NCBI GenBank assembly: GCA_029856125.1
Contig: JAHQWJ010000014.1
Location: 96,001 to 160,000 of the forward strand
Length of the DNA: 64,000 nucleotides
Source of the DNA: Promethearchaeia archaeon
GTDB lineage: Archaea; Asgardarchaeota; Lokiarchaeia; Sigyniarchaeales; SOKP01
Reading direction: 5' to 3'
Shown one piece after another: positions 1 to 33,104 of this stretch. Each line of letters opens with the position of its first letter. The stretch's first letter is position 1. The notes below the pieces were generated by a model, which saw nothing but the letters and a program-made list of their open reading frames with translations, ran no database searches and had not been told where the DNA came from. The translations under genes and the position numbers were made by a program.

Positions 1-240
1 TTCGTCATTCCATTTTACATATTTTATTAAACCTTTTAAATTTAAAGAAGGAAATGGAAGAATTACTAATGATTCTGGAATAAGACCTCTTTCTCCTGAT
101 AGAACTGTAATTGTTTTGACACTAATATGGATTCTATCTGATAGTGATATATCTCCTAACCATACAAATGGATTTGGCCCAACTTCTTCATCCAATTCGG
201 TGTATAATATTCCGTGTATTATATTCTGTTTAGCTTCCAT
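1..240 (-). CDS. Partial (runs off window start) uDENN/longin-like domain protein, paralog of the N-terminus of the 32055 Rab-like GTPase
   Basis: Not in ORF track. Manual translation MEAKQNIIHGILYTELDEEVGPNPFVWLGDISLSDRIHISVKTITVLSGERGLIPESLVILPFPSLNLKGLIKYVKWNDE aligns closely with 32055 (VIYTDIHDELGPNPIHW...KTVTILTGDQG...IIPFPALKLKGLIKY). Confidence 0.85.
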   Translation of the reverse strand, partial: MEAKQNIIHGILYTELDEEVGPNPFVWLGDISLSDRIHISVKTITVLSGERGLIPESLVILPFPSLNLKGLIKYVKWNDE

Positions 241-383
241 TGTAAGGTGTAATAGTATGATCAAAAAATTGAAAATTTCTTAATATAAGTATCGAGTAGA
301 AATATAAATATTAACGCTTTTTAGATTAAAAAAGTTTTAAGTGTGTCTGAAATACAAATAATGAAGGTTTAAAATAATAAAAT

Positions 384-671
384 TTAATCTTTTATGTTTT
401 CTAAGAGAGAAATTATCCGATAAATAGTAGTTCGCGAATGAAATGGAATATTTGCATCCTGAGATAAGTCTGTAATCATATACATTACACCACTGGCAAG
501 AACAGCGGGAGAATCATCTTCACGCTTTAATTCTTCGATCCCTTTTTGAGCTACTCGCTTAATATTTCTTGGAACGCCTCGATCATTAATCATACCAGTA
601 AGCAGATAATCAACTTTTGAAAAGGTGTCGAGAATTTCTTCGGTAAATTCTGGTCCCCTCGGCATAACCAT
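384..671 (-). CDS. UPF0147 family archaeal protein
   Basis: DxxVPRNI(K/R)R motif, DANIPFHSRTTIY C-terminal motif, ~90 aa. Confidence 0.8.
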   Translation of the reverse strand: MVMPRGPEFTEEILDTFSKVDYLLTGMINDRGVPRNIKRVAQKGIEELKREDDSPAVLASGVMYMITDLSQDANIPFHSRTTIYRIISLLENIKD

Positions 672-809
672 CTCACTTTTTAATTTAGTTTAAAAAAATA
701 ATACTAAAAAACTGTATTACTTGATTTTTTAAATATTAATTAAAATTTAATTTTTTTGATTTTCTAATATAAATAACTAGAGTAGTAGTGATAGAATAGC
801 GATAAAAAA

Positions 810-3725
810 CTAGAAAATTCCAAATTCACGGATTTTTTTTGTTAATTTTGGAATTTCTCCTTCGAATGAAGTTAATCGATTATTATATCTATCGTATATT
901 TCTCTAAACGCTAAGCTTTCAGCTTGATTCAAATCTTTAACGAAAGTATAAGATAATTCAGATATCTCTGAGAAAATATCGTTAAATTTGCCAGTAATTT
1001 CTTTTAACTTCGGTTCTACCTTTTTTCTTTGCTTTCTTAGCATATTTCTCAATTTACCTCGAGGTATTCTTATATCTTCAATTAGTTTATCACATTTATC
1101 TAAAAATAGATATGTGTTCGCTCGATTCTCTTTCGGTAATTTAGTTTCAATGATCTCTGTGCGCCAAGTATTTATTCTTCCTCTCGCAAATGTGTCAAAG
1201 TTAAGCGAAATGGAATCAATGCCCTCCCTAACTAAAAACCTTAGAAATTCAGGATCATCGCTAGGAGCTTGACCGCAAATTCCAACTTTTCTTTTGCGTT
1301 CATGGGCAGTTTTAATCAGATGACTTACAGATCTTCGAATTGATTCGCTATTTGTATTATAGTCGTAATTGTTCATAAGTGGGATCATTTTCTCGTTGTC
1401 TCTACCTACACCATATGTTAATTGAGTAAGGTCATTGCTTCCAATACTGAATCCGTCGAAATATTCGCAGAATAGATCGGCGCATATTATATTCGACGGT
1501 ATCTCAGCCATCACATAGACTTTAAGACCTTCCTGACCTCTAACTAATCCTTCGTTTTCCATTATTTCAATAATCTTTTTAGCTTCTTCTGGACTTCTAC
1601 AAAATGGAAGCATTGGAATTATGTTAGCTAATCCCCATTCTCTCGCTTTTTTAATTGCTTTCAATTCTAAAATAAATGCTTCTTGGAATTCTTCGTGAAC
1701 ATAGCGTGAACACCCCCGGAAGCCAAGCATTGGATTATTTTCCTCTCCTTCGTATATCCATCCCCCAATGAGATTTGCGTATTCATTAGTTTTAAAATCT
1801 GAAAGACGAACTACGCATTCAGCTAACTCCCCATTTGGTAAAGTTTTCCAGACTCCGGCTGCAATAGTGGCAATTCCTTCCGCTAGTTTTTCCACATAAA
1901 ATTCTTCCTTGTCTTCGTAACCAGCTGTAATTTCCCTAATCACATCAAGTGTTTTTTTCAATTTCACGATTTCCTTATTAAATGGATCTTTATGATAGAG
2001 ATCGCTTTTCTTGATGTTTTCAATTTTTTTTCTGTGATCTAGTAAAACATCATACCTCATAACTAAAGAATCAAATTCAATTAAAGCATTAGGGTGTATC
2101 CGAATCTCGTCGTTTATAATAAATTCTAACCTAGCTAACCCCGTACCATCAGGATACTTACCTGACGAAAGAGCACCTTTGGGAATTCCTAAATTAACTA
2201 AAACTTGAGTTTTGGTAGAAGGAAGTTTTGCAAATTCGATGGAATCAAAATCGTATTCTACTTCTTTAAGCCATATTCGTGGTTCACCTTGGCTACAATC
2301 AATTGTAACGCTTTCAAGACCGTCTCGTTGTTTTTCTTTAATTTTTTGTATTATGCTCTCTGCTCCTACTATTGATGCGATATTTAACTCTCGAGATACT
2401 ATAGCTGCGTGACATGTTGGTCCACCTTTTTCTGTAATAACACCTCCTAGATTCTGCATATAGGAGGTCCAATCTGGGTTTGTTTCTTCCGTAACCAGTA
2501 TATCTCCCTCTTCTAATAAGTGAGCGTCATTAATAGATTCAATTACTTTAATTTTTCCATAACCAATTCTACGACCTATGGCAGTTCCATTATTTTCTAC
2601 TAAAAAGCCATCGTTAACGAGGTTCGTAGGATCTTCTAATAAATAAAATATTTCTTCAGTATCTCCTTTTTGTGAATGAACTGTTTCAGGTCTAGCTTGA
2701 ACAATATATATTTTGCCATCGTTGCCTAAAGCCCATTCGATATCCATACGTCGACCGTAATGCTTCCGAATTTTAATAGCGTACTCTGCTAAAACTTTAA
2801 CCTCATCCTCACTCAAACAAAACCGTTTTTGTCTTTCTTTTTCCACCGGTAGAGTTATAGTTCCCCCTTTTTCCGAGTCAAAAATCATCATCTGTTCTTT
2901 TTTTACCAAAATTCTACTTATAACCTTTAGCATTGGACCGTGTTTGAAAACGATGAATTCGTCACCTGCTTCGACACCTTGTACGATGAGTTCTCCTAAG
3001 CCCCATGTTCCCCTAATCACCACTACATTTGGATTTCCCGAATCTGGATCTTCAGTAAACATAACACCTGAGGATTTTACACCTTTTAACCCCCCAGCAA
3101 TCTCTTGCACACCTACACTTAATTTAACAGTAAAATGATCGAAACCAGCTCTTTCTCTGTACATCGTTGCCCGGGTTGTGAAAATTGAGGCCATGTCTTT
3201 AAGGATGTATTCTAAAATTTGATTTTCTCCCGAAATATTTAAGTGTGTATCTTGTTGACCAGCAAAAGAGGCGTCAGGTAAATCTTCAGCTGTTGCGGAG
3301 CTTCTAATTGCAAAAGTGCTTTCACTCCCGATTCGATCCACCAAGATGTGGTATGCTTCTACTATTTCGTCAGCTAAACTATCAGGTATTTTGGCTTGTT
3401 CGATGACATAACGGATGTCAGCGCAAAATTTATCAACCTTTTGAATTGATTTTATATCCTCTTTTTTAAGTTCCTCGGTAATTTTATCAATATCTCGTTT
3501 AATGTAATTTTTTAAAGTTATCTCTTCGTTTTTAATCCTAAAATAATTAGTCTCTAAAATGTAATCGTATGCACCTGCTGTAACAGCAAATCCTAATGGT
3601 ACGGGGATTCCAAAAGAAAGAAGTTCTCCTAAAGAGGCGTTCTTTCCTCCAACAATATCCACATCACTCGATCGAACATCATCGAAAAATTTGATGTAGC
3701 GAAAGCTTGGTTTTACTTCCTTCAT
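810..3725 (-). CDS. ppsA: Phosphoenolpyruvate synthase (pyruvate, water dikinase) with C-terminal helical extension
   Basis: VGGKNASLGE, RSSATAEDLPDASFAGQQDT, phospho-His GGPTCHAAIVSRE, GLARLEF, NPMLGFRG, SIGSNDLTQ, GICGQAPS. Confidence 0.95.
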   Translation of the reverse strand: MKEVKPSFRYIKFFDDVRSSDVDIVGGKNASLGELLSFGIPVPLGFAVTAGAYDYILETNYFRIKNEEITLKNYIKRDIDKITEELKKEDIKSIQKVDKFCADIRYVIEQAKIPDSLADEIVEAYHILVDRIGSESTFAIRSSATAEDLPDASFAGQQDTHLNISGENQILEYILKDMASIFTTRATMYRERAGFDHFTVKLSVGVQEIAGGLKGVKSSGVMFTEDPDSGNPNVVVIRGTWGLGELIVQGVEAGDEFIVFKHGPMLKVISRILVKKEQMMIFDSEKGGTITLPVEKERQKRFCLSEDEVKVLAEYAIKIRKHYGRRMDIEWALGNDGKIYIVQARPETVHSQKGDTEEIFYLLEDPTNLVNDGFLVENNGTAIGRRIGYGKIKVIESINDAHLLEEGDILVTEETNPDWTSYMQNLGGVITEKGGPTCHAAIVSRELNIASIVGAESIIQKIKEKQRDGLESVTIDCSQGEPRIWLKEVEYDFDSIEFAKLPSTKTQVLVNLGIPKGALSSGKYPDGTGLARLEFIINDEIRIHPNALIEFDSLVMRYDVLLDHRKKIENIKKSDLYHKDPFNKEIVKLKKTLDVIREITAGYEDKEEFYVEKLAEGIATIAAGVWKTLPNGELAECVVRLSDFKTNEYANLIGGWIYEGEENNPMLGFRGCSRYVHEEFQEAFILELKAIKKAREWGLANIIPMLPFCRSPEEAKKIIEIMENEGLVRGQEGLKVYVMAEIPSNIICADLFCEYFDGFSIGSNDLTQLTYGVGRDNEKMIPLMNNYDYNTNSESIRRSVSHLIKTAHERKRKVGICGQAPSDDPEFLRFLVREGIDSISLNFDTFARGRINTWRTEIIETKLPKENRANTYLFLDKCDKLIEDIRIPRGKLRNMLRKQRKKVEPKLKEITGKFNDIFSEISELSYTFVKDLNQAESLAFREIYDRYNNRLTSFEGEIPKLTKKIREFGIF

Positions 3726-4007
3726 CGTATAATCACTAAAAATTTATTTTCTATTATTTTTCTATTACTTTTTTTTTAAGTTTTTGATGCTTAATAAAAT
3801 TGTCAATTATCAGATGCATATAATCCTCTCTTCCCATCCTTAAAAAGATTCCATACCAATCAAGTATTAATTTTAAAATATATTTTAGCAATTAGATATA
3901 ATTAGACACAATTGTAAAACTTATATATCACTATTTCTTGTTATTAATTACTTCGAAATTCGAAATTAAATTTACTAATGGAATTAATAATGAGGTGAAT
4001 GTGAAAA

Positions 4008-4331
4008 CTGCCGTATCTTTTTACAACATCTTCTTACCCGACCGATTTAAGAGATGAAGTAGTCGAAGCTTATTTTAAAATGTTAAAAGAAATGCCTTTT
4101 GATAGATCTCTCGGAAAAGAAACAATACAGGTAGCAGTTACAACAAATCCTAAGGGAGTAAAGTCGCTAAGTATTGCGAATGTAAAAGAGGATAAACTTA
4201 CGGAAGCCATATTATGGACTTATAGAAGGATGACCTATTTTCAGCTTATCAAGGGATTTGAGTATAAAATTCGAGTGTGGACTAGTATAGTAGAAGCCTT
4301 AGAAAGCATCAATCGAAAGTTACCAGAGTAA
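4008..4331 (+). CDS. Small conserved hypothetical protein, probably starting at CTG 4008 rather than ATG 4080
   Basis: Frame open from 4005 after TGA 4002; GAGGTGA at 3992-3998; extended N-terminus (L/M)PYLFTTSSYPTDLRDEVVEAYFKM reads as ordinary coding sequence. Confidence 0.6.
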   Translation: MPYLFTTSSYPTDLRDEVVEAYFKMLKEMPFDRSLGKETIQVAVTTNPKGVKSLSIANVKEDKLTEAILWTYRRMTYFQLIKGFEYKIRVWTSIVEALESINRKLPE

Positions 4332-4379
4332 TAAAATAATTTTTTTTTCTTTTTATTCTATTTTAATAAAATTTGTGTT

Positions 4380-4904: not shown

Positions 4905-4962
4905 TTTATTCGATATGTATTATTTAATTCCGAAAATAAAATATAATAATAAAAAAAGAAAA

Positions 4963-5703: not shown

Positions 5704-5847
5704 AATTCAACACTAACAAAAGTTTGATAAATTAATTGCTTTTCGATCTAAAGAATTAACCATTGAAAAAAAATTTTCTTTTTTGTTTCATTTAATGGTT
5801 CAATAAAAATATATTAAAGAATCGTTTTCCTACTTATCTTAATATAA

Positions 5848-6063
5848 TCCTCTATTTTTTACCTTTACAAAGGAAACCCTGTAAAATATAGTAAAGGGAT
5901 GCTACCTCAAACTGACAATCTCCTTGAGAGAGCAATTAATATTAGTGTTGGGGTGTCTGATGCAGGATTAGGCTCAGCATTTGGTGTTAGAATCAATAGT
6001 TCTAAAGAAGAAATTGAAACTACCGAACAAACTCTCTTAAAATTGATTCGGGAATGTATTTAA
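5848..6063 (+). pseudogene. Remnant C-terminal fragment, resembling a DegT/DnrJ/EryC1/StrS PLP-dependent aminotransferase
   Basis: Open frame ...YKGNPVKYSKGMLPQTDNLLERAINISVGVSDAGLGSAFGVRINSSKEEIE...* preceded by stop at 5845; resembles the family's C-terminal end with no upstream body. Confidence 0.5.
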
Positions 6064-7292: not shown

Positions 7293-7355
7293 TAATAAAA
7301 TTTTTAAACATACCAATTGTTCAATTCTTAAATAACTAAAAAGTTAGAGATCATT

Positions 7356-8258: not shown

Positions 8259-8276
8259 AGTATTTCTTCTAAGATA

Positions 8277-9794
8277 TTAAGAAATGTACCTTAATAATAA
8301 ATCTTGCGTGCGATTAAGAAAATCTTGGAGATTTTGGTTTATGATATCTTTTTTACTCTCGTCACCAATTAAAAAGAGGATATATAACTCATAATTTACG
8401 ATTTCTACTCGCTTTAACAAGATTACAGAGTCTGAAACTCTAAAGATTGCTTCTTCTTTCGCAGATGTTTTAAATTTGTAAAAAATCTTGAATAATGTAG
8501 TAAATTGAGGGGCAACGACCTCAAATACATTTAGTAATTCTTCAGATTTTTCCATTTGAGTAATTTTCATTGCTTCGGGGGTGAAGTGCTCTGCTAATAC
8601 TAAACCGTCGCTACTCAGAAGAAGTATTAATGATGAGCTTGTGAGCGACGAAAACTCGCTAAGATTTTGCTCAATCAGATTTCTATTCGGGCTCAATTTT
8701 GCAATACCAGATGAAAAAGCTCTCAAAATTGAAAAGATTTTGAACATACTCGTTACATAAATTTCAGGTTTTATGTTAGAAGATAAATTTATTAATTTTT
8801 TCTTAAGGTTTTTAATATTAGATTGGATTTTAACAGAGTCGATAATGTCGGGATCTCCTTTCGAAAATATATAAATTATTGGCGTTTTCTGTTCCAAATC
8901 CTGCAAGGCCTTTCTAATATTCTTAAGATATTCAATACTTTCGCTGAACCTCTCTTCATCTCTTATATCGATAAAATAAAAGAGCAAATCCGCTTCAAAT
9001 AGATAAATTTGGGCTTTATTAAGGTTAAGGTATCTTTCATGATATTTTTTTTGTCCACCTAAGTCCCACAAAAAGATGGTTGTTCCGAGAGCTTCTATCG
9101 AGCTTACAACTGCTCCCAATGTGGGTTTTAATCCTATTAATTTAGAGAATTTTCTATCAACAGATAATATAAAACTTGTTTTTCCACTATTATCAAGACC
9201 TGAAAGAATAATTTTCATTTTTCTTTGTGTTGTTATTGGTGTTGAGGGAGTTTGTTCGATGTTAATAATTTTTTGTAAGAGTTTTTTAAAATCTCTAACA
9301 ACCTGTTCTTGAGGTAATAGCTCATCAGTAATCTTTTTATCAAATTCAGAAAAAAAATCTGTAATTATATTTTTTAACCTGTTTATGTTATTGTATAAAA
9401 AGCTCCTTTTTTTTTCATCAATTAATATACAAAAGGCACTTGCCAATGGTATTTCTGAAAATTTAGCGTCAATAAAATGAAAATAACTAAGAGAAGTTAA
9501 ATGGAAATCTGGAAATGGCATGATTCCAAAATGTTGGTACTTCATCAATACTTCATGCTCTTGTTTAAATATATTTCCATTCCCTAATAGTAAAGTGATG
9601 TTTTTAATCGCAATCTGAGTGTAATCTCTTGAAGTAATTCCAAGTTTACTTTCCTCTCCTTTTTCTGAATTTGCTTTTTTCAGTTGGTCCTCATCAATAG
9701 GATCTGGAAACATATAAATAGGTTGAGGACCGAATTTATCGAAGGCAGAGAATAATAAACCTTTGATTACAGACGATTCAATTAATTTATCCAT
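8277..9794 (-). CDS. uDENN/longin-like + Arf/Rag-like small GTPase + roadblock-like fusion protein
   Basis: N-term FSAFDKFGPQP/IMPFP; G1 GLDNSGKT, G2 PTLG, G3 WDLGGQ, G4 SKGD, G5 TSM; C-term LILLLSSDGLVLA roadblock-like. Confidence 0.85.
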   Translation of the reverse strand: MDKLIESSVIKGLLFSAFDKFGPQPIYMFPDPIDEDQLKKANSEKGEESKLGITSRDYTQIAIKNITLLLGNGNIFKQEHEVLMKYQHFGIMPFPDFHLTSLSYFHFIDAKFSEIPLASAFCILIDEKKRSFLYNNINRLKNIITDFFSEFDKKITDELLPQEQVVRDFKKLLQKIINIEQTPSTPITTQRKMKIILSGLDNSGKTSFILSVDRKFSKLIGLKPTLGAVVSSIEALGTTIFLWDLGGQKKYHERYLNLNKAQIYLFEADLLFYFIDIRDEERFSESIEYLKNIRKALQDLEQKTPIIYIFSKGDPDIIDSVKIQSNIKNLKKKLINLSSNIKPEIYVTSMFKIFSILRAFSSGIAKLSPNRNLIEQNLSEFSSLTSSSLILLLSSDGLVLAEHFTPEAMKITQMEKSEELLNVFEVVAPQFTTLFKIFYKFKTSAKEEAIFRVSDSVILLKRVEIVNYELYILFLIGDESKKDIINQNLQDFLNRTQDLLLRYIS

Positions 9795-12778: not shown

Positions 12779-13744
12779 TTGACAATTCAATTTTTGAATG
12801 AGAAAAAGAAAGTAAAAGAATCTATAAGCCCAAGTAAGCTACTTTTCACAGGTTTGGACAATGCCGGAAAAACGACTATAATTCACGGAATCCAACGTGA
12901 ATTTTCGAAAATTGCATTTCTCAAGCCAACAAGAGGAGCTCAGAGAAGAATATTCGAATTTATGGGGCGTGAAATTGCAGAATGGGACCTTGGGGGACAG
13001 ATAAGTTATCGAATCTCTTATTTGAAAAATCCAGGAAAGTACTTTGATGACACTGAGATTACTGTTTATGTCATCGATGTTCAAAATCGTGTAAGGCTTC
13101 CCGAAGCCATTAGTTATTTAAAAGACGTAGTGGACCGGTTTAAGTCACTCGAGATAGCTCCACCAATATATGTGTTCCTGCACAAATACGATCCCGCACT
13201 AAGAAGAAATGCCCTAAACGAAATGAAGAATCTCGAAGTAGAAATCAAGGATAAAATAAAAATAACTGTAGATTATAAGGAAATCTTTTATTACACGACC
13301 TCAATTTATGATCTGCCTAGTATAATTAAAGCAATGTCTGAAATATTATTAAGTTTGTACCCAAAATCCGAATTAATTGACAGAACGATAATAGAATTTG
13401 GTAAAAAAACATATTCTGATGGAGTTGTCTTACTCGATGATAACTCTCTTATCGTTGGAAGCTTTTATAAAGACGAAGAAACGAAAAACCTCTTAACAGC
13501 TTCAACCCCGTATTTCCTAACCCTCAACGACAGTTTTGTCTTTACCGAAGTTCAACCAGGACGCCAAGAAGAAGAGAATCACATGGTTGTACAGAGATAT
13601 GGAAGGAATTTTATCTTCAAACAGCTTACATTTAAAGAGGGAATGAATCCTTATTATATTCTTATGCTCAAGAAAGATGCTCATATAAATAAAGAAGAAA
13701 TCGAAATGTTTGCTAATCTCTTAAAAGAAATTTTATACAGTTAA
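12779..13744 (+). CDS. Rag/Arf-like small GTPase with C-terminal roadblock-like domain
   Basis: G1 GLDNAGKT, G2 PTRG, G3 WDLGGQ, G4 HKYD, G5 TSIYD; C-term GVVLLDDNSLIVG; SD AGGTGA before TTG. Confidence 0.88.
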   Translation: MTIQFLNEKKKVKESISPSKLLFTGLDNAGKTTIIHGIQREFSKIAFLKPTRGAQRRIFEFMGREIAEWDLGGQISYRISYLKNPGKYFDDTEITVYVIDVQNRVRLPEAISYLKDVVDRFKSLEIAPPIYVFLHKYDPALRRNALNEMKNLEVEIKDKIKITVDYKEIFYYTTSIYDLPSIIKAMSEILLSLYPKSELIDRTIIEFGKKTYSDGVVLLDDNSLIVGSFYKDEETKNLLTASTPYFLTLNDSFVFTEVQPGRQEEENHMVVQRYGRNFIFKQLTFKEGMNPYYILMLKKDAHINKEEIEMFANLLKEILYS

Positions 13745-13875: not shown

Positions 13876-14946
13876 TTGATAATTTGTTCTAATTGTGGTA
13901 CTACTAACAATGAATCAGCTGGTAACGTTTGTAGAACTTGTGGAGCATTACTTCCAAGAGCGCGTAGACCATCAAGAACTAAAATTGGTCCAAAGAAAAA
14001 AGAAATCTTAGAATCTCAAGGAAAAAAAACAAAAATAAAAACAAAAACAAAAAAACCACAACCGGCTAAACCCCAGAAAAAGCCACCAATTAAGAAAAAA
14101 CCATCAAAACCTACAAGTTTGGATCTTCACGAAATCCCAAAAGTTAAAGCATTAAATAACGATCATGTGGAAATTCTTGAAGATCCGACAGATATAAATG
14201 AAGAAATAATAGAAGATGATTTAGACGATATTTTAGATGGTATCTTAGACAATGTGGAAGAAAATACAGAATTTCTAAAGGAAATTGCTCCACAACCATT
14301 CCGAGGTTCGATAATTGCTGATAAAGGCGTTTATGGACAACCTAAACAACCAAGAAAGGTATCACGTTCTAAATCTAAAAAAGGAACTCGAGATGCGGTT
14401 ACTTCCGAACACACTGAATCTAACCTTCTAAAGCAAAAACAATTAGAAGAAGATATGACCAAAGTGCTTTCATTCTTGTCAAAAAAAATAACTGTAAAAC
14501 CCTTAAAACCTGTAAAAAAGGGGGAAATTGCTTCAACAAAACCTAAGGATTCTATACCTCCGTCGAGTATGAGCGAAATCTTAAAAGATTTGCTAAAATT
14601 AGATTTACATATTGAAGCTTCTGCGATTATTAAAAAGGATGGAACTATATTAGCCTCAGCTCTTAGTTCAAGGATTTCAGATTCCCTATTTGCGACAATT
14701 GCGGCCAACCTGTCAATGATGGGAGTAGATATTATTGAAGGGTTAAGTGCTGGGACTTTACTAAATATGTCCATAAGGGGCACTGATGGAGTATTAGATT
14801 TAGCTCCTATCGGCTTTGAAAAACTCCCTGGAGAGGATATGATCTTAATAATTTTCTCACACCCCAAAATTAAGAGCGGGATAATCCACTTTGCTGTTAG
14901 CATCGTAAAGAAGCGAGTACAGCAATATCTAGGTCTATCAAAATAA
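13876..14946 (+). CDS. Zinc ribbon + low-complexity linker + roadblock/LC7 (MglB/LAMTOR-like) domain protein
   Basis: CSNC...CRTC; Lys/Pro-rich then acidic linker; IEASAIIKKDGTILASAL...FATIAANL. Confidence 0.82.
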   Translation: MIICSNCGTTNNESAGNVCRTCGALLPRARRPSRTKIGPKKKEILESQGKKTKIKTKTKKPQPAKPQKKPPIKKKPSKPTSLDLHEIPKVKALNNDHVEILEDPTDINEEIIEDDLDDILDGILDNVEENTEFLKEIAPQPFRGSIIADKGVYGQPKQPRKVSRSKSKKGTRDAVTSEHTESNLLKQKQLEEDMTKVLSFLSKKITVKPLKPVKKGEIASTKPKDSIPPSSMSEILKDLLKLDLHIEASAIIKKDGTILASALSSRISDSLFATIAANLSMMGVDIIEGLSAGTLLNMSIRGTDGVLDLAPIGFEKLPGEDMILIIFSHPKIKSGIIHFAVSIVKKRVQQYLGLSK

Positions 14947-16653: not shown

Positions 16654-18066
16654 ATGTCAGGACAAGAAAACAATATTATCAAATCAATCGTTTTAAGTTT
16701 ATTTGACGACGATGGACCCACACCAAAGATTTACTGGCCAACAGAAATGGACGAATCATCGCGCTTGTTAATAGCGATGAAAACGATTTCTCTATTGATG
16801 GGGGATTCTGTTTATCAAAATGGAACTTCATCAGATACCGTTAATTATTTCGGGATATTACCTTTCCCAGATTTAAAACTGAATGGGTTGACATACTTCT
16901 TCTTAATACTTGATCCAATGGCAAGAGGGAACGCAAAAGCAGCTACGATTACCGTTCTAATAAATGAAGATGATAGGGTTTTTTTCTACGAAAACATGAA
17001 ATACCTAAGAATTATAATAGATAAATCGGCATCAAAGGTTCAATTAGCTAAAACGTTAGAAGAAAACCAAAAAATTATGGATGATTTAAAAGAAGAATTA
17101 TTCAACTTTACTAGCGAGATAAAGAATCCATTCCTAAATTTGAGACAAATTAAAATTCTTATGACGGGATTGGATCGAGCGGGAAAAACAAGTTTCTTGC
17201 ACGCCGTTAAGCAACGATATAGCGAAATCATTAAAACCCTCCCAACTAAAGGAGTCGCACGAACCGAAGAGAAGATATTCGAAGAACAAAATTCTAAGAT
17301 ATCTCTCTGGGATTTAGGTGGTCAAAAGAAATATAGGGATATGTTTATTGAGCAAAGAAAAGTTTACCTCTATAACGTTGATCTACTTTTTTATTTTATC
17401 GACATTCAAGATTCAGAAAGAATATCAGAAGCTATTGAGTTGTTTGGAACCGTTATTGATTCTCTTATAGAATTAGAAGAATTTCCACCTATAATTATCT
17501 GTCTTAATAAATTCGATCCTGATATTAAAAACGCGAAGGATATTAAAAAAAATATTAAAACTGTAAATGAAAAGATAAAGGAAATCTCTGAAAGGTTTTT
17601 TGTGAAGATTTTCCAGACGTCTATATTTGATCACTGGTCTTTAGTATCGGCATATTCTTTTGGACTTTCACAACTCAGTCCAAATAGAGAGTTATTCGAA
17701 AATCAATTGAAGCAATTCGCTAAGAAAATAAGCTCAGATGCAATCCTTTTACTTAACGAAAATGGAATTATCCTCTCTAATTTCTCTAAATCCGGTATTT
17801 CTGAAAAGGTTTTTGAAATATCTGCCCCTCACTTCCAAACCTTGTACAAAACATTTAAAGAATTTAAACTATTAAAACAAGATTTTTTAATTTCTTCGGG
17901 AATAACTTCCGAATCGAAAAAAGTAATCTTTAAGAGGATTCCTGTTGAGAAATATAACCTTTACCTACTTTTGTTCTTGGAAAAAGAGTTAAATATGGAT
18001 AAAATAGATAAAAATTTACCTAAATTATCTAAAAACCTGAATGAATTAATCCAGACTTATATATAA
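16654..18066 (+). CDS. uDENN/longin-like + Arf/Rag-like small GTPase + roadblock-like fusion protein (paralog of 8277)
   Basis: LSLFDDDGPTP, YFGILPFP; G1 GLDRAGKT, G2 PTKG, G3 WDLGGQ, G4 NKFD, G5 TSIFD; AILLLNENGIILS; shared LSPNR and FE(I/V)xAPxF motifs with 8277. Confidence 0.87.
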   Translation: MSGQENNIIKSIVLSLFDDDGPTPKIYWPTEMDESSRLLIAMKTISLLMGDSVYQNGTSSDTVNYFGILPFPDLKLNGLTYFFLILDPMARGNAKAATITVLINEDDRVFFYENMKYLRIIIDKSASKVQLAKTLEENQKIMDDLKEELFNFTSEIKNPFLNLRQIKILMTGLDRAGKTSFLHAVKQRYSEIIKTLPTKGVARTEEKIFEEQNSKISLWDLGGQKKYRDMFIEQRKVYLYNVDLLFYFIDIQDSERISEAIELFGTVIDSLIELEEFPPIIICLNKFDPDIKNAKDIKKNIKTVNEKIKEISERFFVKIFQTSIFDHWSLVSAYSFGLSQLSPNRELFENQLKQFAKKISSDAILLLNENGIILSNFSKSGISEKVFEISAPHFQTLYKTFKEFKLLKQDFLISSGITSESKKVIFKRIPVEKYNLYLLLFLEKELNMDKIDKNLPKLSKNLNELIQTYI

Positions 18067-19468: not shown

Positions 19469-20110
19469 ATTATCTACAAGATTTTTCTTATTGATGGCGA
19501 TAATGGAATATCACTTCTAGAAGCTACGTTTAAAGAACTTAAGCATAAAAACAATGGTAATAATGTTATACCTGGGTTTTTTAATGAAATAAATGAAATT
19601 ATCGATAAAATTCAGGCTGCTATGGTTAAGGGTAAAAATGGGGATGATATGACTAGAATTGTCGAATCTGAAAATTCTACAATTATTATAGTTTACCATC
19701 CTCCCTCAAGAATTTTGTATTGTTCGATTTCTGATGCTGACGACGATATAGATAAATTAATTGCTGTAATGAACAAAATATCTAATAGATTCTATAAAAA
19801 ACACTCATCTGATATAAAATTATTTAGAACTACTTCTGAGAAATCGCGGTTTCAAACAATTATCGCAGATATAGAAAACATATGTCAAGGTGGAAAAGTA
19901 GCAGAAATTTTTCCAAAATTGCTTATTGGCGAGAATGTACTTCCTAAAATCGTCTCAATGGGGATGATTGACGAGGAGGAGCTTCGAGTTGCCTTGAAAT
20001 GTGCTGGAAAAGCCTCACCTTTAAGAATAGCAAGAGAGTTAGGTAAATCTCGGAACGAAGTAAATAACATTTTAAAAAAATTAGAACAGTTAGATATCGT
20101 TAATTTCTGA
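19469..20110 (+). CDS. Longin-like domain + C-terminal winged helix protein; probable ATT start
   Basis: Frame open from 19463; IIYKIFLIDGDNGISLLE...IPGFFNEI is a longin-type N-terminus missing from track ORF (19622); C-term SPLRIARELGKSRNEVNNILKKLEQLDIV wHTH. Confidence 0.72.
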   Translation: MIYKIFLIDGDNGISLLEATFKELKHKNNGNNVIPGFFNEINEIIDKIQAAMVKGKNGDDMTRIVESENSTIIIVYHPPSRILYCSISDADDDIDKLIAVMNKISNRFYKKHSSDIKLFRTTSEKSRFQTIIADIENICQGGKVAEIFPKLLIGENVLPKIVSMGMIDEEELRVALKCAGKASPLRIARELGKSRNEVNNILKKLEQLDIVNF

Positions 20111-24737: not shown

Positions 24738-27700
24738 TTATTTATTTGATGGTATTATAATCTGCTTGTCTATCAGCGTTTCTATTGCGTCTATTATGAG
24801 ATCTTGATTTTTTTCGTGTACCACATCAAAAATAGTCTCCAGGTGAAATTCCTGTTTATTCTTAGCGATCGAATAAATAACATTTAATATTCGAGTTTCC
24901 ATAGAATTTAATTCACTTTCTTTTCTTATACTGGCAATATACTTGGCATCGTTGATTTTAAATGCGTCTTTATAATATAACTCTACATATTTTGTTATAA
25001 CAGGAGGTAATTGTGATTCAAATTCATGAATAGCACCGTCCCAGTTTTCAATTAGCTGCGAAAGATCGAGCATGATTCCTAGAGACAAATCCGAGATTAA
25101 TTTCTTCAATCGATCTGAAGCTTTTTCATTGAGTAAAAAAATCATTCGTAAATCTTGTCGGTCACAGATTAAGCAATAAAAGTATTTAAAATCCAATTCT
25201 AAGATCGTTCTACTACCATCCGAGTCACCAGAGTTAGTCAAGTCTTTGTCGATTTCTCTTTTACCAACCATTTCTTCTCCAACAGTAATAATAGCTTGGA
25301 TGAAGCCTGAAAAAAGTTCTTTTTTATGCTTCTCCAAAATGGAATAGCTTTTTGAATAAAGGGGAATTCCACTGTATCTATGAATTGCTACAATAGCTTG
25401 AATGTTCTGAATGTCCTTGAATCTTTGGGTTTTTGATAATAAATCAGCTTCTTTTCTCCTTCTTCGTGGTAAAATTACGTAAGATCTCAAGCTTAAAATT
25501 CCTAAAACACTTATAATCGCAGCTGAAATTAAGACTATAATCCATATTATGAACATAGGAAATTCTGGTTCACCAATTACTAATAGAAATGAGGATTGCG
25601 TTGTTTTATATACAGTACCTTCTTTCGAAATTATCAAGTTAAATATGAAATTTCCTTGTAGATTCTCTGGAAGTTTTGTTGATAATTGGTATATACCTGG
25701 TGTAATTTCTACTAACTCACCGACCCCATATGTCCATTCATACAATACCGTTGCATTTATTATGGATTGATTAGTTTCAAAATCTAAAAGCTCGATTTGA
25801 AGATTAAGAGTGCTTCCTATATCTGTTTTAACCGTTGGATTTGCGTCCTCATGATCAAGTATATCAACATCAAATTCAATCCGGTTTAGCAGTAATTCAA
25901 ATCCAAATGTTTCTGTTCTATAGTTTGGATGTTGAAATTTTAAATATACAAAATTGATTCCAGATGAGAAATTATCTGGTAAGCATTGCATAGAAGAATT
26001 GTACCAATAATCTGCTATTACGCTAAAATTTGATTCGTACGATTCGCTAACCCACGTAATATTTCCTCCTAAGATATAGGTATCATCAATATTCGACTTA
26101 ACTTTAGTAGAAACGTTGATAAAATCAAAAAAAGTGACTTCCAAAAGGGAGTTCTCTATAATATTTATTGAGTTGAGATATACTGAAATTGAAACTGACT
26201 GTTTTATTATTTGAAATTGGTAGTTGTAGTATTGTGGTTCGTATCCAATTGTTGAAAACGTAAAATTTAATTGATGGACGCCAATTTGTTCGATGTACGA
26301 CGTACTAAACTCAATATCATAGGTTCCATTTCCGGTATTCGCTATGGAATAGAGTGACGAATTACTGATGCTGATGTTTACAACAGCTCCATCAATGCCA
26401 TCACCACTAAAATCTGTAAATTTAAACTTAATTGAGCTATTTGCATGTAATTCTATATTATATTCAGATTCGAGCCTTTGCAAGTTAGTTTCTTCGCCTA
26501 AATTTATTTTCAGCGTAATATTACTTTCTATAAATCCTAGTTTTGATGAGCTTATTAGAATCTCGTATAAACCCCTTGAAGATAAATCAGCGGTATCGAG
26601 AATAGTTTCATAAACGCCAATAGCTGCTTCAGTAAAGTTAAGAGTTGATCCACCCGTCCAATTATAGGAAACAATCGCATCTGAAATGGATAAGTTATTT
26701 TCTAGATCAGTTAAAATAACTCTTACAGGAATGATATCTCCCACAAAACCATCCGTTTGTAAACCTGATTTAGCATCGTCAGGTTTTAACAATTCAATTT
26801 GGCTCTGATGGTATACAATAAAATTAGATTTAATACCACCTAACGCCGTTCCATTACTCCAGAATAAATTATATTCAAATTGACCACCTGTAGTATTTAA
26901 AGCAGAGAATGTAAGTTCTGAAAAGAAAACAGTTCCATTTGATAAGGGTGAATTCACTTCTGAATACCATTGATTTCCTTCGGGATCAAATATTGTTAAG
27001 TTTACTTCTGTAGACTCAATATTACTAGGAATCTCACTACTATAATTTATTTGAGTTTTAATTCGCGTTGATTCACCTGTATCAAAACTAGTGTGAGTCC
27101 AGCTACCTTGTTTCAACATTTTAGTATTTGTTAAATCAATGTAATTAGGGGAAGTTGCCTTAAAAGTCCACCAGCCAGGAAACAGTGCATTCTCCTTGCT
27201 AATATGCAAAATTGAATCTCCTTCTCCTCCATTTTCATATGGACGAGATTGCAACGTAGGATCCAGAACTGAAATAAAGTTCCAATTTTCAGGTTTATGA
27301 ATGGTGAATTCAAAGTCTGAATAGTGCGCTGGCATATATAAATTGTGAGAAAACTCCCAGATTATAGTCCCATTTTCTAAAATTTCGTATGAAACGCCAT
27401 CTAGAGTGGTTTGTCCTACTCGTGATTTGGTTTCATGATATCCATAGAGAGAAGTATCAAGATCAAATGATAAGGAGGGTGAATTTGTAGTAACTGTTAA
27501 ATTTAATGGATTTAAATCCCAATTACCTGTTAAATTTAAATAAGAATTAGCCCAACCCGTTCCCTGATTAAGAGCATAATTATTCAATCTAAGATTGATT
27601 TCACTTTGGCTTGAATTTGCAAGAGTAGTTAAAACCAATGAAACATTATCAAACCAAAAAACTTGCTGATATTGGTCTTCAAATCCAGAATAGCCAATAG

Positions 27701-28901
27701 ATGCTCCACTCATTATACCAACTGAAAAATTAAATACATTATTATTTTTTATATTTTCAAAGATATTCGATGTATTCGTCCATAAGTCCATATTAATTAA
27801 TCCTGTATTGTGCCATGCTTCTTTTCCAGCATCATTAATATCCCGCAATCCTTTTGAATATACTCTTTTATTATTTATTTTAAAAAAGATAAAATTTTCA
27901 TTAGAACCCATTACAGATTCTGCATAATAATCAAATGAAATGTAACCATCAACTACTTGACCACGAGGAATTGATATATTCTGATATATTTCAGTAAAAT
28001 CATCTTCTAGATAATTTACATCACTAGGATCATTATCATTCCAATATGGTAGTCCACTTAATCTAGTAAACATAGCATCACTACCACCTATTTGACCCGC
28101 ACCATAATCTGTTTGAGCTATAGACCCATTATTAAAACCCCATGAATGATAATTTATATCGTAAGATGAACTTGAATTAATAAATTCATAATAATCAATA
28201 TAATATCCATAACTCTCTACAGTGTCGTCTGATACATAGTAGCAATTCAATTCCTCACCCCTTATCCAAGGTGTATATAAATCTGAATATCCAGTACCAC
28301 TATGTCCATATTGGATTACATCATTATCATCCTCAATTAAAAAGACATCCCATCCATCTTCAAAAGACAAATTAACAAAATGAGCTCTCATAGCAATAGC
28401 CCCAGTATGCGTTATTGTATCAAGGCTATCAGATTTATCATAATTCTTCTTATAAGAATGATCACTTTCATGGATTTCATAAACTCTATAAGTAGAAGCT
28501 ATTGGAAGAAAATCACTGTTATTCACCCATTCCTTAGTATCTTGGATGTTCGTTATCTCAGTAGCTACTTTTGAAACTTCCCAGTCGTGAACATCATCTA
28601 AATAATAGGTTAGATTTACTGCTTCTTGATTATTTACATCAACTTGTTGTTCATCCTTATATAAATTGCCATAATCAGTTATATTTAAAGATATTTCATT
28701 ACCTTCAAATAAAACTGGAGGATTGTCAGCAAGTAAGGGTGTTTGGGAATAATTATTAAAGTCTCTGTCTATTTCTTTAATATTCTTGGAATTTGGAATG
28801 AAAAAACTACTTAAAAGAAATATTGCTAATATAGTAATAAGACCTGCTTTTCTTAGAATTGAACTTTTTTTTAAAAGTGATTTTTTAGAAAAATTTTTCA
28901 T
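24738..28901 (-). CDS. Large single-pass surface protein: CUB-like and Ig-like extracellular domains, TM, cytoplasmic longin-like + wHTH-like domain
   Basis: N-term hydrophobic signal; MRAHFVNLSFEDGWD...YVSDDTVESYGY CUB-like; beta-rich N-glycosylation-sequon-rich repeats; TM IIWIIVLISAAIISVLGIL + RRRRK; QAIVAIHRYSGIPLY...LFSGFIQAI longin-like. Confidence 0.78.
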   Translation of the reverse strand: MKNFSKKSLLKKSSILRKAGLITILAIFLLSSFFIPNSKNIKEIDRDFNNYSQTPLLADNPPVLFEGNEISLNITDYGNLYKDEQQVDVNNQEAVNLTYYLDDVHDWEVSKVATEITNIQDTKEWVNNSDFLPIASTYRVYEIHESDHSYKKNYDKSDSLDTITHTGAIAMRAHFVNLSFEDGWDVFLIEDDNDVIQYGHSGTGYSDLYTPWIRGEELNCYYVSDDTVESYGYYIDYYEFINSSSSYDINYHSWGFNNGSIAQTDYGAGQIGGSDAMFTRLSGLPYWNDNDPSDVNYLEDDFTEIYQNISIPRGQVVDGYISFDYYAESVMGSNENFIFFKINNKRVYSKGLRDINDAGKEAWHNTGLINMDLWTNTSNIFENIKNNNVFNFSVGIMSGASIGYSGFEDQYQQVFWFDNVSLVLTTLANSSQSEINLRLNNYALNQGTGWANSYLNLTGNWDLNPLNLTVTTNSPSLSFDLDTSLYGYHETKSRVGQTTLDGVSYEILENGTIIWEFSHNLYMPAHYSDFEFTIHKPENWNFISVLDPTLQSRPYENGGEGDSILHISKENALFPGWWTFKATSPNYIDLTNTKMLKQGSWTHTSFDTGESTRIKTQINYSSEIPSNIESTEVNLTIFDPEGNQWYSEVNSPLSNGTVFFSELTFSALNTTGGQFEYNLFWSNGTALGGIKSNFIVYHQSQIELLKPDDAKSGLQTDGFVGDIIPVRVILTDLENNLSISDAIVSYNWTGGSTLNFTEAAIGVYETILDTADLSSRGLYEILISSSKLGFIESNITLKINLGEETNLQRLESEYNIELHANSSIKFKFTDFSGDGIDGAVVNISISNSSLYSIANTGNGTYDIEFSTSYIEQIGVHQLNFTFSTIGYEPQYYNYQFQIIKQSVSISVYLNSINIIENSLLEVTFFDFINVSTKVKSNIDDTYILGGNITWVSESYESNFSVIADYWYNSSMQCLPDNFSSGINFVYLKFQHPNYRTETFGFELLLNRIEFDVDILDHEDANPTVKTDIGSTLNLQIELLDFETNQSIINATVLYEWTYGVGELVEITPGIYQLSTKLPENLQGNFIFNLIISKEGTVYKTTQSSFLLVIGEPEFPMFIIWIIVLISAAIISVLGILSLRSYVILPRRRRKEADLLSKTQRFKDIQNIQAIVAIHRYSGIPLYSKSYSILEKHKKELFSGFIQAIITVGEEMVGKREIDKDLTNSGDSDGSRTILELDFKYFYCLICDRQDLRMIFLLNEKASDRLKKLISDLSLGIMLDLSQLIENWDGAIHEFESQLPPVITKYVELYYKDAFKINDAKYIASIRKESELNSMETRILNVIYSIAKNKQEFHLETIFDVVHEKNQDLIIDAIETLIDKQIIIPSNK

Positions 28902-29060
28902 ATTATCCCCATTATTGATAAAAATAATTATAAAATTTATAAAAACTAAAATTAATAAATTTAAGTTATAGTGAAATGAATTTCTATTCGAAATTTTACT
29001 CTTTGAGAATTTTTAAGTTTAAATTTTAGGAGTAGATCACTATTTTTGAAATTCTACTTG

Positions 29061-29384
29061 CTAATTAGGGAGCTCATCGATAAATTCTGTTTTGAGAACT
29101 GACATATAAGACCTTTTTTCTCCGTTGTCTAAGGAATTCACATTCGTACCTCTGCTGGTATAAATATCTGGAGGATGTTCGTCAAACAATGAAAGAATGA
29201 GTAATATTGCATTTTTTACAAACTCTTTTCTACTAGTCCTTTCTAGTACCTTCATCAATTCTATGAATGATTTATCTTTCCATAATTCAATAGTTTCTTT
29301 ATTTGCGTTCGGATTCTGGAAGAATTCTATGATATTCGAGTAATAATCCAATTCAGAGTTTTCACAGTTGTTTGAAGTATTCAT
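29061..29384 (-). CDS. Hypothetical protein
   Basis: 107-aa ORF, no recognised motif. Confidence 0.6.
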   Translation of the reverse strand: MNTSNNCENSELDYYSNIIEFFQNPNANKETIELWKDKSFIELMKVLERTSRKEFVKNAILLILSLFDEHPPDIYTSRGTNVNSLDNGEKRSYMSVLKTEFIDELPN

Positions 29385-29634
29385 AAGTTTGACCGTTCCT
29401 ATAAAAATATTACAAAATTATTTGTTTTTAAACTAAACGAGAATCTTAGTTTTTTGTTATGACTATCCGTACGTTAATTCTCCAAAAATTTTTAATCCTT
29501 GAAAAAAAACACATCCATTACTAACAAATATGAATTTCTAAAAGGTTTTTAATTTCTTATGTACTACGCTGATATTACCTCACTTAAATGAGTAAAGAGA
29601 GTCGAAATAAAATTAGAAATGGAAAAGAATTAGC

Positions 29635-30633
29635 CTATAGATTTTCAATTTCTGAGGGAACATATCCAAAAGTGTTTAAGAATCGCTTTTTCACGCTTGC
29701 AATGTCATAAACTTGTGTTTGAGCACCACTAGTTTCTACAACAAAAGAGCCTACAGTTGAGCCTAAACGACAAGCATTTTTCAAACTCATATTTAGAATC
29801 AATCCAGATAGAAAACCCGCTCGATATCCATCTCCTGCACCTGTGGTGTCAATTACCTTGTTAGGATTCGAAATTGGAATTTCGATAGATTCTAGTTTTC
29901 CAGAAGGTGTTTTTGTAATAATTTCAGAACCTTCTGACCCCTTAGTTTTTACTATCGTACTGACATGTTCGAGTAAATCGTTTTCGGTCATCCCTGTCTT
30001 GCTCATAACTTGATTAATTTCGTAAGTATTTCCTATTAATATTTCTGATTTGGTTAATATGTTCAGCAAGTTATCTTTGGAAAATAAAGGAGTGATTTGT
30101 CCGGGGTCAAATATCATAGGGATTTTTAACTCGCTTAATTGATCGGCAAAATTCTTCATCGCATCGATGCCTTGGGTAGAATTTATTGCATAGGCATACT
30201 GTTCAGGATCATTAATTTTCTTTCGCAAATCTATATTTTTACCAGCATCTAACGCTCCTCCGTGAAAGATTATCATCTGATTTGATTTTTTATCGTTTAC
30301 AATGTAGCACGCTGCCGTAAACAGATCGGTTTGAATATCTACGTTCAAATCAATGTTGAGGAATTTTGTTATGTGATTTTTATACCCTAAACTTTCGAAG
30401 TCTTCACCAACAGAACCTAAGAGCGAGACGGGGGATAAATTTAATAATCCAAGATTATATGCGATGTTTCCCGCAGTTCCACCAAAATGTTGAATGCGAC
30501 TATTGGCAGTTACCGTGCTTTGATATTCTTTTTTCTCGTAATCAATAGACACAGCATTTACAAAGTTTTCGTCAAATCCCATGATATAATCAAAGGCAAG
30601 GGAACCCAATACAATAACTTTATTTCGTTTCAT
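29635..30633 (-). CDS. PfkB family carbohydrate/nucleoside kinase
   Basis: GSLAFD, GGTAGNIAY, FDPGQ, DTTGAGDGYRAG. Confidence 0.92.
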   Translation of the reverse strand: MKRNKVIVLGSLAFDYIMGFDENFVNAVSIDYEKKEYQSTVTANSRIQHFGGTAGNIAYNLGLLNLSPVSLLGSVGEDFESLGYKNHITKFLNIDLNVDIQTDLFTAACYIVNDKKSNQMIIFHGGALDAGKNIDLRKKINDPEQYAYAINSTQGIDAMKNFADQLSELKIPMIFDPGQITPLFSKDNLLNILTKSEILIGNTYEINQVMSKTGMTENDLLEHVSTIVKTKGSEGSEIITKTPSGKLESIEIPISNPNKVIDTTGAGDGYRAGFLSGLILNMSLKNACRLGSTVGSFVVETSGAQTQVYDIASVKKRFLNTFGYVPSEIENL

Positions 30634-30770
30634 TTCAGTCTTAACCTATTATAAAGTGTAGTAAAGCGATAATATAGTACTTTTAAGCATTAAATTTAGA
30701 TTTTATGAAATAACTAACTTATTAAATTTAAGAGTTCTACTTTTAACTTATCAAATACTCTTTCTATTGT

Positions 30771-31397
30771 ATGAATAAACTCATAGCATCTATTGAATCA
30801 CTAAAAGACAATAATATTTCTAGTGTTATAACTGAGCGTATTAAGGAATTCTCTGAATTAGGAGAATTACCGATTGAAAAAATATTTGAAGAACTATGTT
30901 TTTGTATCCTAACTGCTAATTGTGCTGCAATAAGCTGTATTGAGGTTCAGAAAAGAATAAATATTGGATTTTTGAATTATTCTGAAGAAGAATTAAGAAA
31001 CAAATTCAAGGAATATGGTTATCGTTTTCCTAATATAAGAGCAAAGTACATAGTTGAGGCTAGGGAACATATTTTAGATATTAAAAAAAAAATTAATTCA
31101 AACATGGATGAAATGATGATAAGAGAATGGTTAGCTAAAACCATTAAGGGATTAGGGTACAAAGAGGCTAGCCATTTTTTACGAAATATAGGGTTCAAAA
31201 ATATTGCTATAATAGATTTTCACATAATAGATATTTTAGAAAAATTCCGAATTATCCAAAAACCAAAATCTCTATCCAAGAAGAAATATATTGAGATTGA
31301 ACAAGTTCTTAAAAAAATAGGAGATCGTGTTAATTTGGATTTAGATGAATTAGATTTGTACCTATGGTATATGGAAACTGAAAAAGTGTTAAAATAA
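30771..31397 (+). CDS. ogg: 8-oxoguanine N-glycosylase/DNA lyase (archaeal Ogg type)
   Basis: ELCFCILTAN, RFPNIRAKYI, KGLGYKEASHFLRN, AIIDFHI, LDLYLWY. Confidence 0.9.
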   Translation: MNKLIASIESLKDNNISSVITERIKEFSELGELPIEKIFEELCFCILTANCAAISCIEVQKRINIGFLNYSEEELRNKFKEYGYRFPNIRAKYIVEAREHILDIKKKINSNMDEMMIREWLAKTIKGLGYKEASHFLRNIGFKNIAIIDFHIIDILEKFRIIQKPKSLSKKKYIEIEQVLKKIGDRVNLDLDELDLYLWYMETEKVLK

Positions 31398-31411
31398 AAG
31401 ATCGACTACTG

Positions 31412-31678
31412 TTACAAATTATCCAATGGTAAATCTAAATCTACTTCAGCAGATTTTAATTTTTTCATGAATTCAACTGTTCCGACTTCATTTACCATTA
31501 ATTCTAATAAGTTTCCGTAGAGATTTTCAATGTTATCTTGCCCTATTTTAAGGTATATGTCTTCAGAGGGGAGCGTAATCTTTAAGACTTCGTAAAGACC
31601 TCGGATACAGTCTTTAATATTCTCAAAATTCATTAGTGCCTTTTTCGTTGATTCGTAAACAATATCGGTTTTTTCCAT
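31412..31678 (-). CDS. Hypothetical small helical protein
   Basis: 88-aa ORF. Confidence 0.6.
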   Translation of the reverse strand: MEKTDIVYESTKKALMNFENIKDCIRGLYEVLKITLPSEDIYLKIGQDNIENLYGNLLELMVNEVGTVEFMKKLKSAEVDLDLPLDNL

Positions 31679-32054
31679 TTTTAATTATTACACCGTAAAC
31701 GTGTTTTCCGTTGTACTAAATGAAAAATTTAAGGTTTAAATAATAGTTGGTATTTGGACAATTGCGTGACTAAAGAACAAAATAAAAAAATCCAATATCA
31801 CCTATATTATGTTTTAGGGCGGGCTAGTTCTCGTTTATAAATTATTAGGGTGATCTTTATACATTAATATAATTAGTTATAGAAAGCTAGTTTCAATCCA
31901 AAATTAATGATATTACATTTTATCTTTTTGTCAGAGCAAAATTCTTGCCTTAATTTCTAATAACTTAGATATAAATATTTTTAATTTTTTTATAAATTAG
32001 TTCCGAACAGAAAAGAAAACGCAATTTTTTAACTAATTATAATAACTTTTCACC

Positions 32055-33104
32055 ATGAAGAAATTAATTGATGCTGTAATATACACAGATATTCACGATG
32101 AACTGGGCCCTAATCCTATTCATTGGTTTCCGCCGAATTTACCTGAATCTGTCAGAATGTTAGTAGGAATTAAAACTGTAACAATACTTACAGGTGATCA
32201 AGGTTCTGTACCAGATTCGCTTTTAATAATTCCTTTTCCAGCTTTAAAATTGAAAGGATTAATTAAGTATATAGAAAGGGAAGACGAAAGTAAAAGAGGT
32301 GGATTTGCAAGAAGCGCAATAACATTCTTGTTTAAAGAAACAGATGACGTCATTTTCTATAAATATATGAGCTACCTCAAATCTCCTTTCGATGAAACAA
32401 CGAGAAGGATTATTGAATTAGAGAATAGAAATGTAGAACGTAAAAGGATTTTTGAAGAGATTACAATTTTACAGGATAGCGTCAGTAAGCTATTAGACGA
32501 TTTTAGAACCAAAGAAATAACTTCACCAGCATCGAAAGAATTCCCTGAAAAACGAATCAAAGATGATAAAATTGTAGACTATAGGCTTAAACTCGTAGTT
32601 GTTGGAGACCCTGGCGTAGGGAAGACATCGACAATTTTGCGATTTACTGATAATGCGTTCTTAAGAACTTACGTTCCGACCCTTGGCGTATCTATCACTG
32701 AAAAACTATTTAATACTCAAAGTGGAATCATAGAAATGATTTTGTGGGACATTGCTGGACAAACAAAGTTTGAAACGATGAGAAGACATTTCTATCAAGG
32801 CTCTGAGGCGATATTACTTATTTTTGATTTGACAAATCGAATGTCTTTTACGAGTATAAAAAATTGGTATCACGATGTTATGAATAATATGGAGAAACAC
32901 CACCATCAAATGGTTGGATATATTTTTGGTAATAAAAGTGATCTAACAGAAGTACGAAAAGTTAAATTAGTTGAGGCATTAGCCTTAGCCAAGGAATTGA
33001 ATTTGAAATATATTGAAACATCTGCTAAAACTGGGAAAAATGTCGAATATGCTTTCTATGATATAGCAGAAACAGTTGTAAAATTACGTTTGAACAAACC
33101 TTAA
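32055..33104 (+). CDS. uDENN/longin-like domain fused to Rab-like small GTPase
   Basis: G1 GDPGVGKT, G2 PTLG, G3 WDIAGQ, Rab-like FETMRRHFYQGSEAILLIFDLT, G4 NKSD, G5 ETSAK; no C-terminal Cys prenylation motif. Confidence 0.9.
   Translation: MKKLIDAVIYTDIHDELGPNPIHWFPPNLPESVRMLVGIKTVTILTGDQGSVPDSLLIIPFPALKLKGLIKYIEREDESKRGGFARSAITFLFKETDDVIFYKYMSYLKSPFDETTRRIIELENRNVERKRIFEEITILQDSVSKLLDDFRTKEITSPASKEFPEKRIKDDKIVDYRLKLVVVGDPGVGKTSTILRFTDNAFLRTYVPTLGVSITEKLFNTQSGIIEMILWDIAGQTKFETMRRHFYQGSEAILLIFDLTNRMSFTSIKNWYHDVMNNMEKHHHQMVGYIFGNKSDLTEVRKVKLVEALALAKELNLKYIETSAKTGKNVEYAFYDIAETVVKLRLNKP

Follow-up and report, generated by a model that had tools for sequence, protein, structure and literature searches.

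Asgard archaeal small GTPases with a fused longin domain and a candidate arginine finger

We describe a family of small GTPases from an Asgard archaeon of the Lokiarchaeia type in which the G domain shares its polypeptide with a longin domain that models as a member of the FLCN/NPRL2/C9orf72 neighbourhood. The longin carries a GP motif and, in some members, an arginine in the loop that holds the arginine finger of eukaryotic longin GTPase-activating proteins (GAPs). Two sister paralogs differ in this residue, which one keeps and the other lacks. We consider it plausible, at slightly less than an even chance, that these proteins are small GTPases with a fused FLCN/SMCR8/NPRL2-type GAP longin, dependent on dimerization and acting within the same dimer.

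Domain architecture of the gene family

Four genes in the window, the 64,000-nt stretch of DNA analysed here, encode proteins that share an N-terminal module of about 150 aa. R0, A, B and R1, as we call them, lie among the open reading frames (ORFs) of the window where a preliminary description had placed them, and the motif that united them there, D-x(2-3)-GPxP...K(T/N)(I/V)xxLxG...PFP, occurs in no other of the 9,995 ORFs of the genome and in none of 20 shuffles. Because this motif was derived from the four proteins themselves, independent evidence of kinship comes from pairwise BLASTP, which aligns the B module with those of R0, A and R1 at E values of 2e-18 to 1e-12 and 31–33% identity; the shared module was thus correctly recognized. 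An iterated profile search of the genome converges at five members, the fifth being a degenerate longin-Rab on contig C36 (L002:6746-7789) that has neither the GP motif nor the loop arginine. The homologs carry the names Promethearchaeota or Lokiarchaeota.

Several neighbours and other GTPases fall outside this family. The products of the ORFs at 19622 and 24738 gave no match to the module profile and were excluded from the count. The first (19622-20110) is a short protein with a winged-helix-like C-terminal segment, as judged by weak Pfam HTH matches, which adjoins B and is conserved there, and whose real start codon may be further upstream; the second (24738-28901) is probably a surface protein, 1387 aa long, whose transmembrane segment comes late in the chain and whose cytoplasmic tail resembles a longin on visual inspection. 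Elsewhere in the genome, GTPases at G000 C63:130223, C32:38067, C8:58448, C76:1549, C135:81914 and C12:21071 have N-terminal extensions of 95–190 aa unlike the module.

R0 and R1 join the longin to a Rab-like GTPase. The window holds only the first 80 aa of the 350-aa R0 (1..240, minus strand); the gene runs beyond the window edge to G000:C18:95188 (L001:7188-8240) and is complete in the assembly, with GP at aa 21-22 and an RRGG loop at aa 82-85 (R83) just past the edge. R1 (32055..33104, plus strand) has 349 aa, the G1 motif GDPGVGKT and the G3 motif WDIAGQ, and its Arg81 (32295..32297, plus strand), in a KRGG loop, aligns with Arg91 of B. In both proteins G1 to G5 are intact and the G3 Gln is present, as it is in 70 of 74 longin-Rab homologs, and both match Pfam Ras (6e-47 and 4e-44, the latter for R0). 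R1 has no C-terminal Cys, and none of the 74 longin-Rab proteins has a prenylation Cys within its last five residues, so we call them Rab-like, not true Rabs. The preliminary description was right that two GTPase classes bear the module; it counted a single Rab-like fusion, and the complete R0 adds a second, giving two Rab-like and two Rag-like proteins.

A and B are three-domain proteins, each with a longin, a Rag-like G domain and a roadblock-type C-domain. A (8277..9794, minus strand; 505 aa) has its longin at aa 1 to about 180, with an insert of about 20 aa ahead of helix 1, G1 at aa 199 and the C-domain from about aa 367; B (16654..18066, plus strand; 470 aa) has them at aa 1-155, aa 172 and from about aa 341. 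Their identity is 34% end to end, and Gtr1_RagA is the best Pfam family of both (2e-21 for A and 4e-26 for B). The G domain plus roadblock gives profile E values of 2e-58 to the Lokiarchaeal structure 8yl2 and 3e-25 to RagA, and by profile as well as by fold the similarity to RagA, Gtr1 and 8yl2 spans both domains. LokiRagO (8yl2), LokiRagM and RagA/Gtr1 are the best solved relatives; the full-length B model (52 close homologs; pLDDT 59, longin unresolved) was used for its G-roadblock part only. Of the earlier Arf/Rag-like assignment, Rag-like therefore stands and Arf-like falls, and the roadblock-type domain is an addition. A also departs from the usual motif at G4 (8853-8864, aa 311-314), which reads SKGD instead of NKxD; Ser replaces Asn/His there in 87 of 100 aligned homologs and may change nucleotide affinity.

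Fold and motifs of the longin module

The module folds as a longin, as the preliminary description had supposed. Modelled alone from 147 diverse rows, the B module reached pLDDT 92.7 and pTM 0.89 and shows the longin order beta-beta-alpha-beta-beta-beta-alpha-alpha, formed by five strands and three principal helices (residue numbers in the model are those of B minus 3). Structurally, the Lokiarchaeal longin 8yqg comes closest (Z 18.9, rmsd 2.0, 137 aligned); it is also found by profile at E 2e-18. Next come Lst4 (Z 13.4), chains of the C9orf72-SMCR8 complex (13.0 and 12.8), folliculin complexes (12.6 and 12.4) and GATOR1 complexes (12.4 and 11.5), so that subunits of longin-GAP complexes head the eukaryotic matches (Z 12.1-13.4). 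DENND1 follows at Z 10.5-11.3 through its uDENN/longin lobe (DENND1A 11.3, rmsd 3.5, 116 aligned), behind by a small margin of only 1–2 Z units, and SNARE, TRAPP and Mon1-Ccz1 longins score about 8-10.

Family-level searches point the same way. Pfam Folliculin matches 35 of 147 members of the module family (best E 3.6e-7, several above cut-off), DENND11 only one of the 147 (E 0.067). A shape search of the Atlas returned archaeal Folliculin-labelled, C9orf72 and SMCR8 clusters at TM 0.75-0.82; its feature search gave only unnamed clusters plus an NPR2 lead at 19%, below 0.9. Within this genome, Pfam Folliculin has a single match, to B and below cut-off, which is no evidence on its own because a search this loose also scored in 8 of the 14 control genomes. 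In the PDB, searching by sequence and by profile led to 8yqg only, and not to FLCN, SMCR8 or NPRL2. Together, the models and searches support a longin of the FLCN/NPRL2/C9orf72 neighbourhood.

The uDENN side of the earlier proposal, by analogy with DENN Rab exchange factors, fared less well. The DENND1 uDENN matches, the Z values of 8-9 for Mon1-Ccz1 and TRAPP longins and the frequent service of longin dimers as GEFs would fit an exchange factor built into the chain, whether of DENN or of Mon1-Ccz1/TRAPP type. However, cDENN and dDENN make the Rab contacts in DENND1, and R0, A, B and R1 have no such region: the G domain begins about 10–30 residues after the last helix of the module, there is no DENN Pfam match, and the linker leaves no space for cDENN/dDENN, so a DENN-type GEF is unsupported. 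C9orf72-SMCR8, formerly called a GEF, proved to have no exchange activity in vitro, and passages of PMC12290439 report that GP is missing from DENND, TRAPP and adaptin longins. We regard an exchange factor as very improbable.

The GP motif and the loop arginine place the module closer to the GAP longins. According to the same passages (PMC12290439), GP marks the GAP longins: C9orf72, SMCR8, FLCN and NPRL2 have it at strand 2 or just ahead of it, and some Asgard longins combine it with an arginine finger. GP is present in A, B, R0 and R1; in B it is Gly21-Pro22 (16714..16719, plus strand), which opens strand 2 in the model, and it recurs in all 114 B homologs and 118 of 120 A homologs. Arg91 of B (16924..16926, plus strand) sits in D-x-x-A-R-G, between strands 4 and 5 of the model. 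SMCR8 Arg147, the counterpart of FLCN Arg164, occupies the beta4-beta5 loop as well, and the Pfam Folliculin match runs across the loop holding Arg91. Since PDB sequence searches missed FLCN and SMCR8, the equivalence of Arg91 to these residues is drawn from loop position and the Pfam match, and we propose Arg91 as a candidate arginine finger.

The distribution of this arginine is sharply asymmetric. All 114 B homologs have it, as do 51 of 51 B-type rows in a diverse alignment, 70 of 85 Rab fusions and 22 of 31 non-GTPase relatives, often as D-x-x-A-R-G-G; the sequences counted are related and do not stand for independent events. In A, the beta4-beta5 loop (9447..9470, minus strand; aa 109-116) has no Arg, and none of 120 A homologs has one in that column, although GP is retained. 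The crystallized relative 8yqg also lacks the loop arginine. Neither the candidate finger nor its A/B asymmetry featured in the preliminary description.

GP/Arg longins are not confined to GTPases. They are also fused to HTH, roadblock or membrane proteins without a G domain, and because the same motif occurs in such proteins, fusion alone does not identify the substrate. Examples from other Asgard lineages join the longin to a TrmB-type HTH and to a wHTH (P0187; L074:3027-3767), place it behind an N-domain of about 110 aa in the roadblock-longin layout of 8yqg (P0206), or place it C-terminally in a large protein with a 1466-aa open frame (L082:1035-5432). One of the representatives, P0151, is a three-domain longin(Arg)-Rab-TIR protein (TIR_2 E 7e-19).

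A possible built-in GAP and its alternatives

Eukaryotic longin GAPs work as dimers, with one longin bound to the GTPase and its partner contributing the arginine. The solved ARF1 complex follows this division, one longin gripping the GTPase and the other supplying Arg. By analogy, A and B might pair through their roadblock domains as a Rag-like heterodimer, with the A longin as holder and the B longin as finger forming a platform like C9orf72-SMCR8 or FNIP-FLCN, and this platform would stimulate the hydrolysis of GTP by one of the dimer's own G domains. Longin-Rab proteins would work likewise, as homodimers or pairs, and the degenerate C36 copy might be an Arg-less partner of R0 or R1. A lone monomer acting on its own G domain is unlikely. 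The fold, the motifs and the way these are distributed are observed here; dimerization, catalysis and substrate are inferred. The fuller version, in which the A+B heterodimer is at once a Rag-like pair and a working GAP pair like FLCN-FNIP or NPRL2-NPRL3 while the same GAP longin also serves Rab-like GTPases, is a more doubtful proposition. If true, the heterodimer would be a self-contained prokaryotic counterpart, ancestral or parallel, of the Rag–folliculin/GATOR1 module.

Complex prediction weakly suggests an A-B heterodimer. In a prediction that covered the A+B pairing and its overall score, the full-length proteins scored 0.54 against 0.00 for the best control, with contacts agreeing at least 87% between runs and partner pLDDT at least 78. 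The score passes a mark that 58 of 80 solved pairs attained, as did 2 of 110 mismatched ones; among those passing, scores of 0.60 or less comprise 7 solved pairs and both mismatches. Because Rag dimers have already been solved, the pass may reflect likeness to them. The solved Lokiarchaeal Rag-like relatives are one homotetramer and one monomer, and 8yqg, the closest solved relative of the module, is titled a longin dimer. The preliminary description suggested that the module could mediate heterodimerization between paralogs; for the Rag-like pair A and B, heterodimerization has weak backing.

Action in trans is a different way to use the same chemistry. A longin platform with a working arginine finger could act on GR or on free Rab-like proteins, with the fused G domain gating or localizing the GAP in a GTPase cascade. 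The genome holds about 70 GTPase-domain matches and the module sits on five only; relatives keep GR between A and B; some Arg-bearing longins have no G domain at all; and all eukaryotic longin GAPs work in trans. Yet the fusion is stable in both GTPase classes, with the module in every family genome searched, and direct evidence points to no other substrate. On balance we judge trans action unlikely.

The longin could also be a scaffold or sensor only, serving dimerization or ligand or membrane binding, with the arginine structural or contacting a non-GTP partner. Members of its family are joined to wHTH, TrmB-type HTH, roadblock, TIR and large proteins, passages of bioRxiv 10.1101/2020.10.19.343400 describe NPRL2-like longins fused to two-component domains, and the titled dimer 8yqg has no loop Arg. 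Such a role is improbable in our view: the short-loop Arg is invariant, accompanies GP and corresponds by loop position to a proven arginine-finger site, and the Arg is cleanly lost in one sister paralog, which makes catalysis the simpler explanation. If the arginine is catalytic, the folliculin/GATOR1/C9orf72-SMCR8 mechanism, including the split between finger and holder, existed in Asgard archaea, and longin-GAP action would be open to study in a two-protein system.

Relation to known systems and family history

The layouts and the motif have each been published, separately. Passages of Tran et al. 2024 (PMC10933270) describe MK-D1 GTPases fused to a longin (LG) or sandwiched between a longin and a roadblock (LGR), and the machine-read supplement assigns LGR rows to the Rag-like proteins and one LG row to the Rab clade. 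Compared by layout, these have the same longin-GTPase(-roadblock) order as A, B, R0 and R1. In the passages searched the longin is not typed as GAP-like and 'arginine finger' is unmentioned; they do note that such GTPases may require GAPs, and that assigning GAPs and GEFs to Asgard GTPases from the genome is difficult (PMC10933270). NPRL2-like Asgard longins with varied fusions have appeared in print (bioRxiv 10.1101/2020.10.19.343400, in part), and these and the Asgard GP/Arg longins of PMC12290439 belong to the same longin family, GTPase fusion being absent from the passages concerned. Our literature search, which covered mainly papers outside subscription, found none stating together that the fused longins are of the GP/Arg type and that one sister is Arg-less, none showing an arginine-finger longin GAP at work in an archaeon, and none for 8yqg or for LokiRagO/LokiRagM. 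Passages of PMC12290439 ask which GTPases are the targets of Asgard GP/Arg longins. The fusions name candidate regulator-GTPase pairs, with A and the C36 copy as natural negative controls, and the sister pair with and without Arg makes a built-in off-switch testable.

Structural comparison sets the fusions apart from their nearest counterparts. The eukaryotic longin GAPs, FLCN-FNIP2 (for RagC), NPRL2-NPRL3 of GATOR1 (for RagA) and SMCR8-C9orf72 (for Arf1 and Rab8a/11a), have in common with them the longin fold, GP, the beta4-beta5 loop Arg and the coexistence of Arg-bearing and Arg-less paralogs, and A resembles C9orf72 in keeping GP while lacking Arg. Unlike those GAPs, whose longins share 6–15% identity with the module, the fusions carry the longin in the GTPase's own chain and have no DENN or winged-helix C-terminal part. 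8yqg is of the same longin family but derives from a roadblock-longin protein without Arg. A and B share G domain and roadblock with the Rag/Gtr heterodimers, LokiRagO (8yl2) and LokiRagM (8zla, 9m28), and differ from them in the extra N-terminal longin, in Arf-like G1 and G3 motifs and, for A, in SKxD at G4.

Trees suggest few fusion events. In a quick, unrooted longin tree the Rab-fused rows lie on one side (support 84) and A-type rows on another (92); degenerate copies like that on C36, also present in other genomes of the genus, group near R1. Because the RagA/RagB labels on this tree were set by the arginine itself, we retested the split without the longin. In the tree of GTPase plus roadblock, which contains long branches, rows with and without Arg again separate (SH-aLRT 81 and 89) and are joined at 94, apart from the genome's other Rag-like proteins. 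A and B are sister paralogs, one with and one without the loop Arg. Most simply, each GTPase class acquired the longin in about one fusion event, after which the three-domain gene was duplicated and one copy lost the Arg. The preliminary description had the module shuffled onto different classes; two classes are indeed involved, and repeated shuffling is unnecessary, with Rab- and Rag-fused longins on separate sides of the unrooted tree.

A survey of Asgard genomes, of the kind the preliminary description called for, found the module throughout the family. It is present in 60 of 60 family genomes searched and in both genomes of the sister family; several other Asgard families gave weaker matches, and those excised were not fused to a GTPase.

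A and B flank a third Rag-like gene. GR (12779..13744, plus strand) encodes a Rag-like GTPase with a roadblock and without a longin, closely related to the crystallized homotetramer LokiRagO (8yl2, E 2e-87). A and B lie on opposite strands, divergent and 6.9 kb apart, and do not form an operon. The order A–GR–B is maintained across the family, but we rejected this synteny as a sign of a functional cluster, since housekeeping neighbours are equally syntenic. GR is tandemly duplicated in two relatives (L100, L107), and directly downstream of it, in most relatives examined, lies the gene that here occupies 13876-14946 and encodes a Zn-ribbon, a low-complexity linker and a C-terminal roadblock (Pfam Robl_LC7 E 0.0012, below cut-off).
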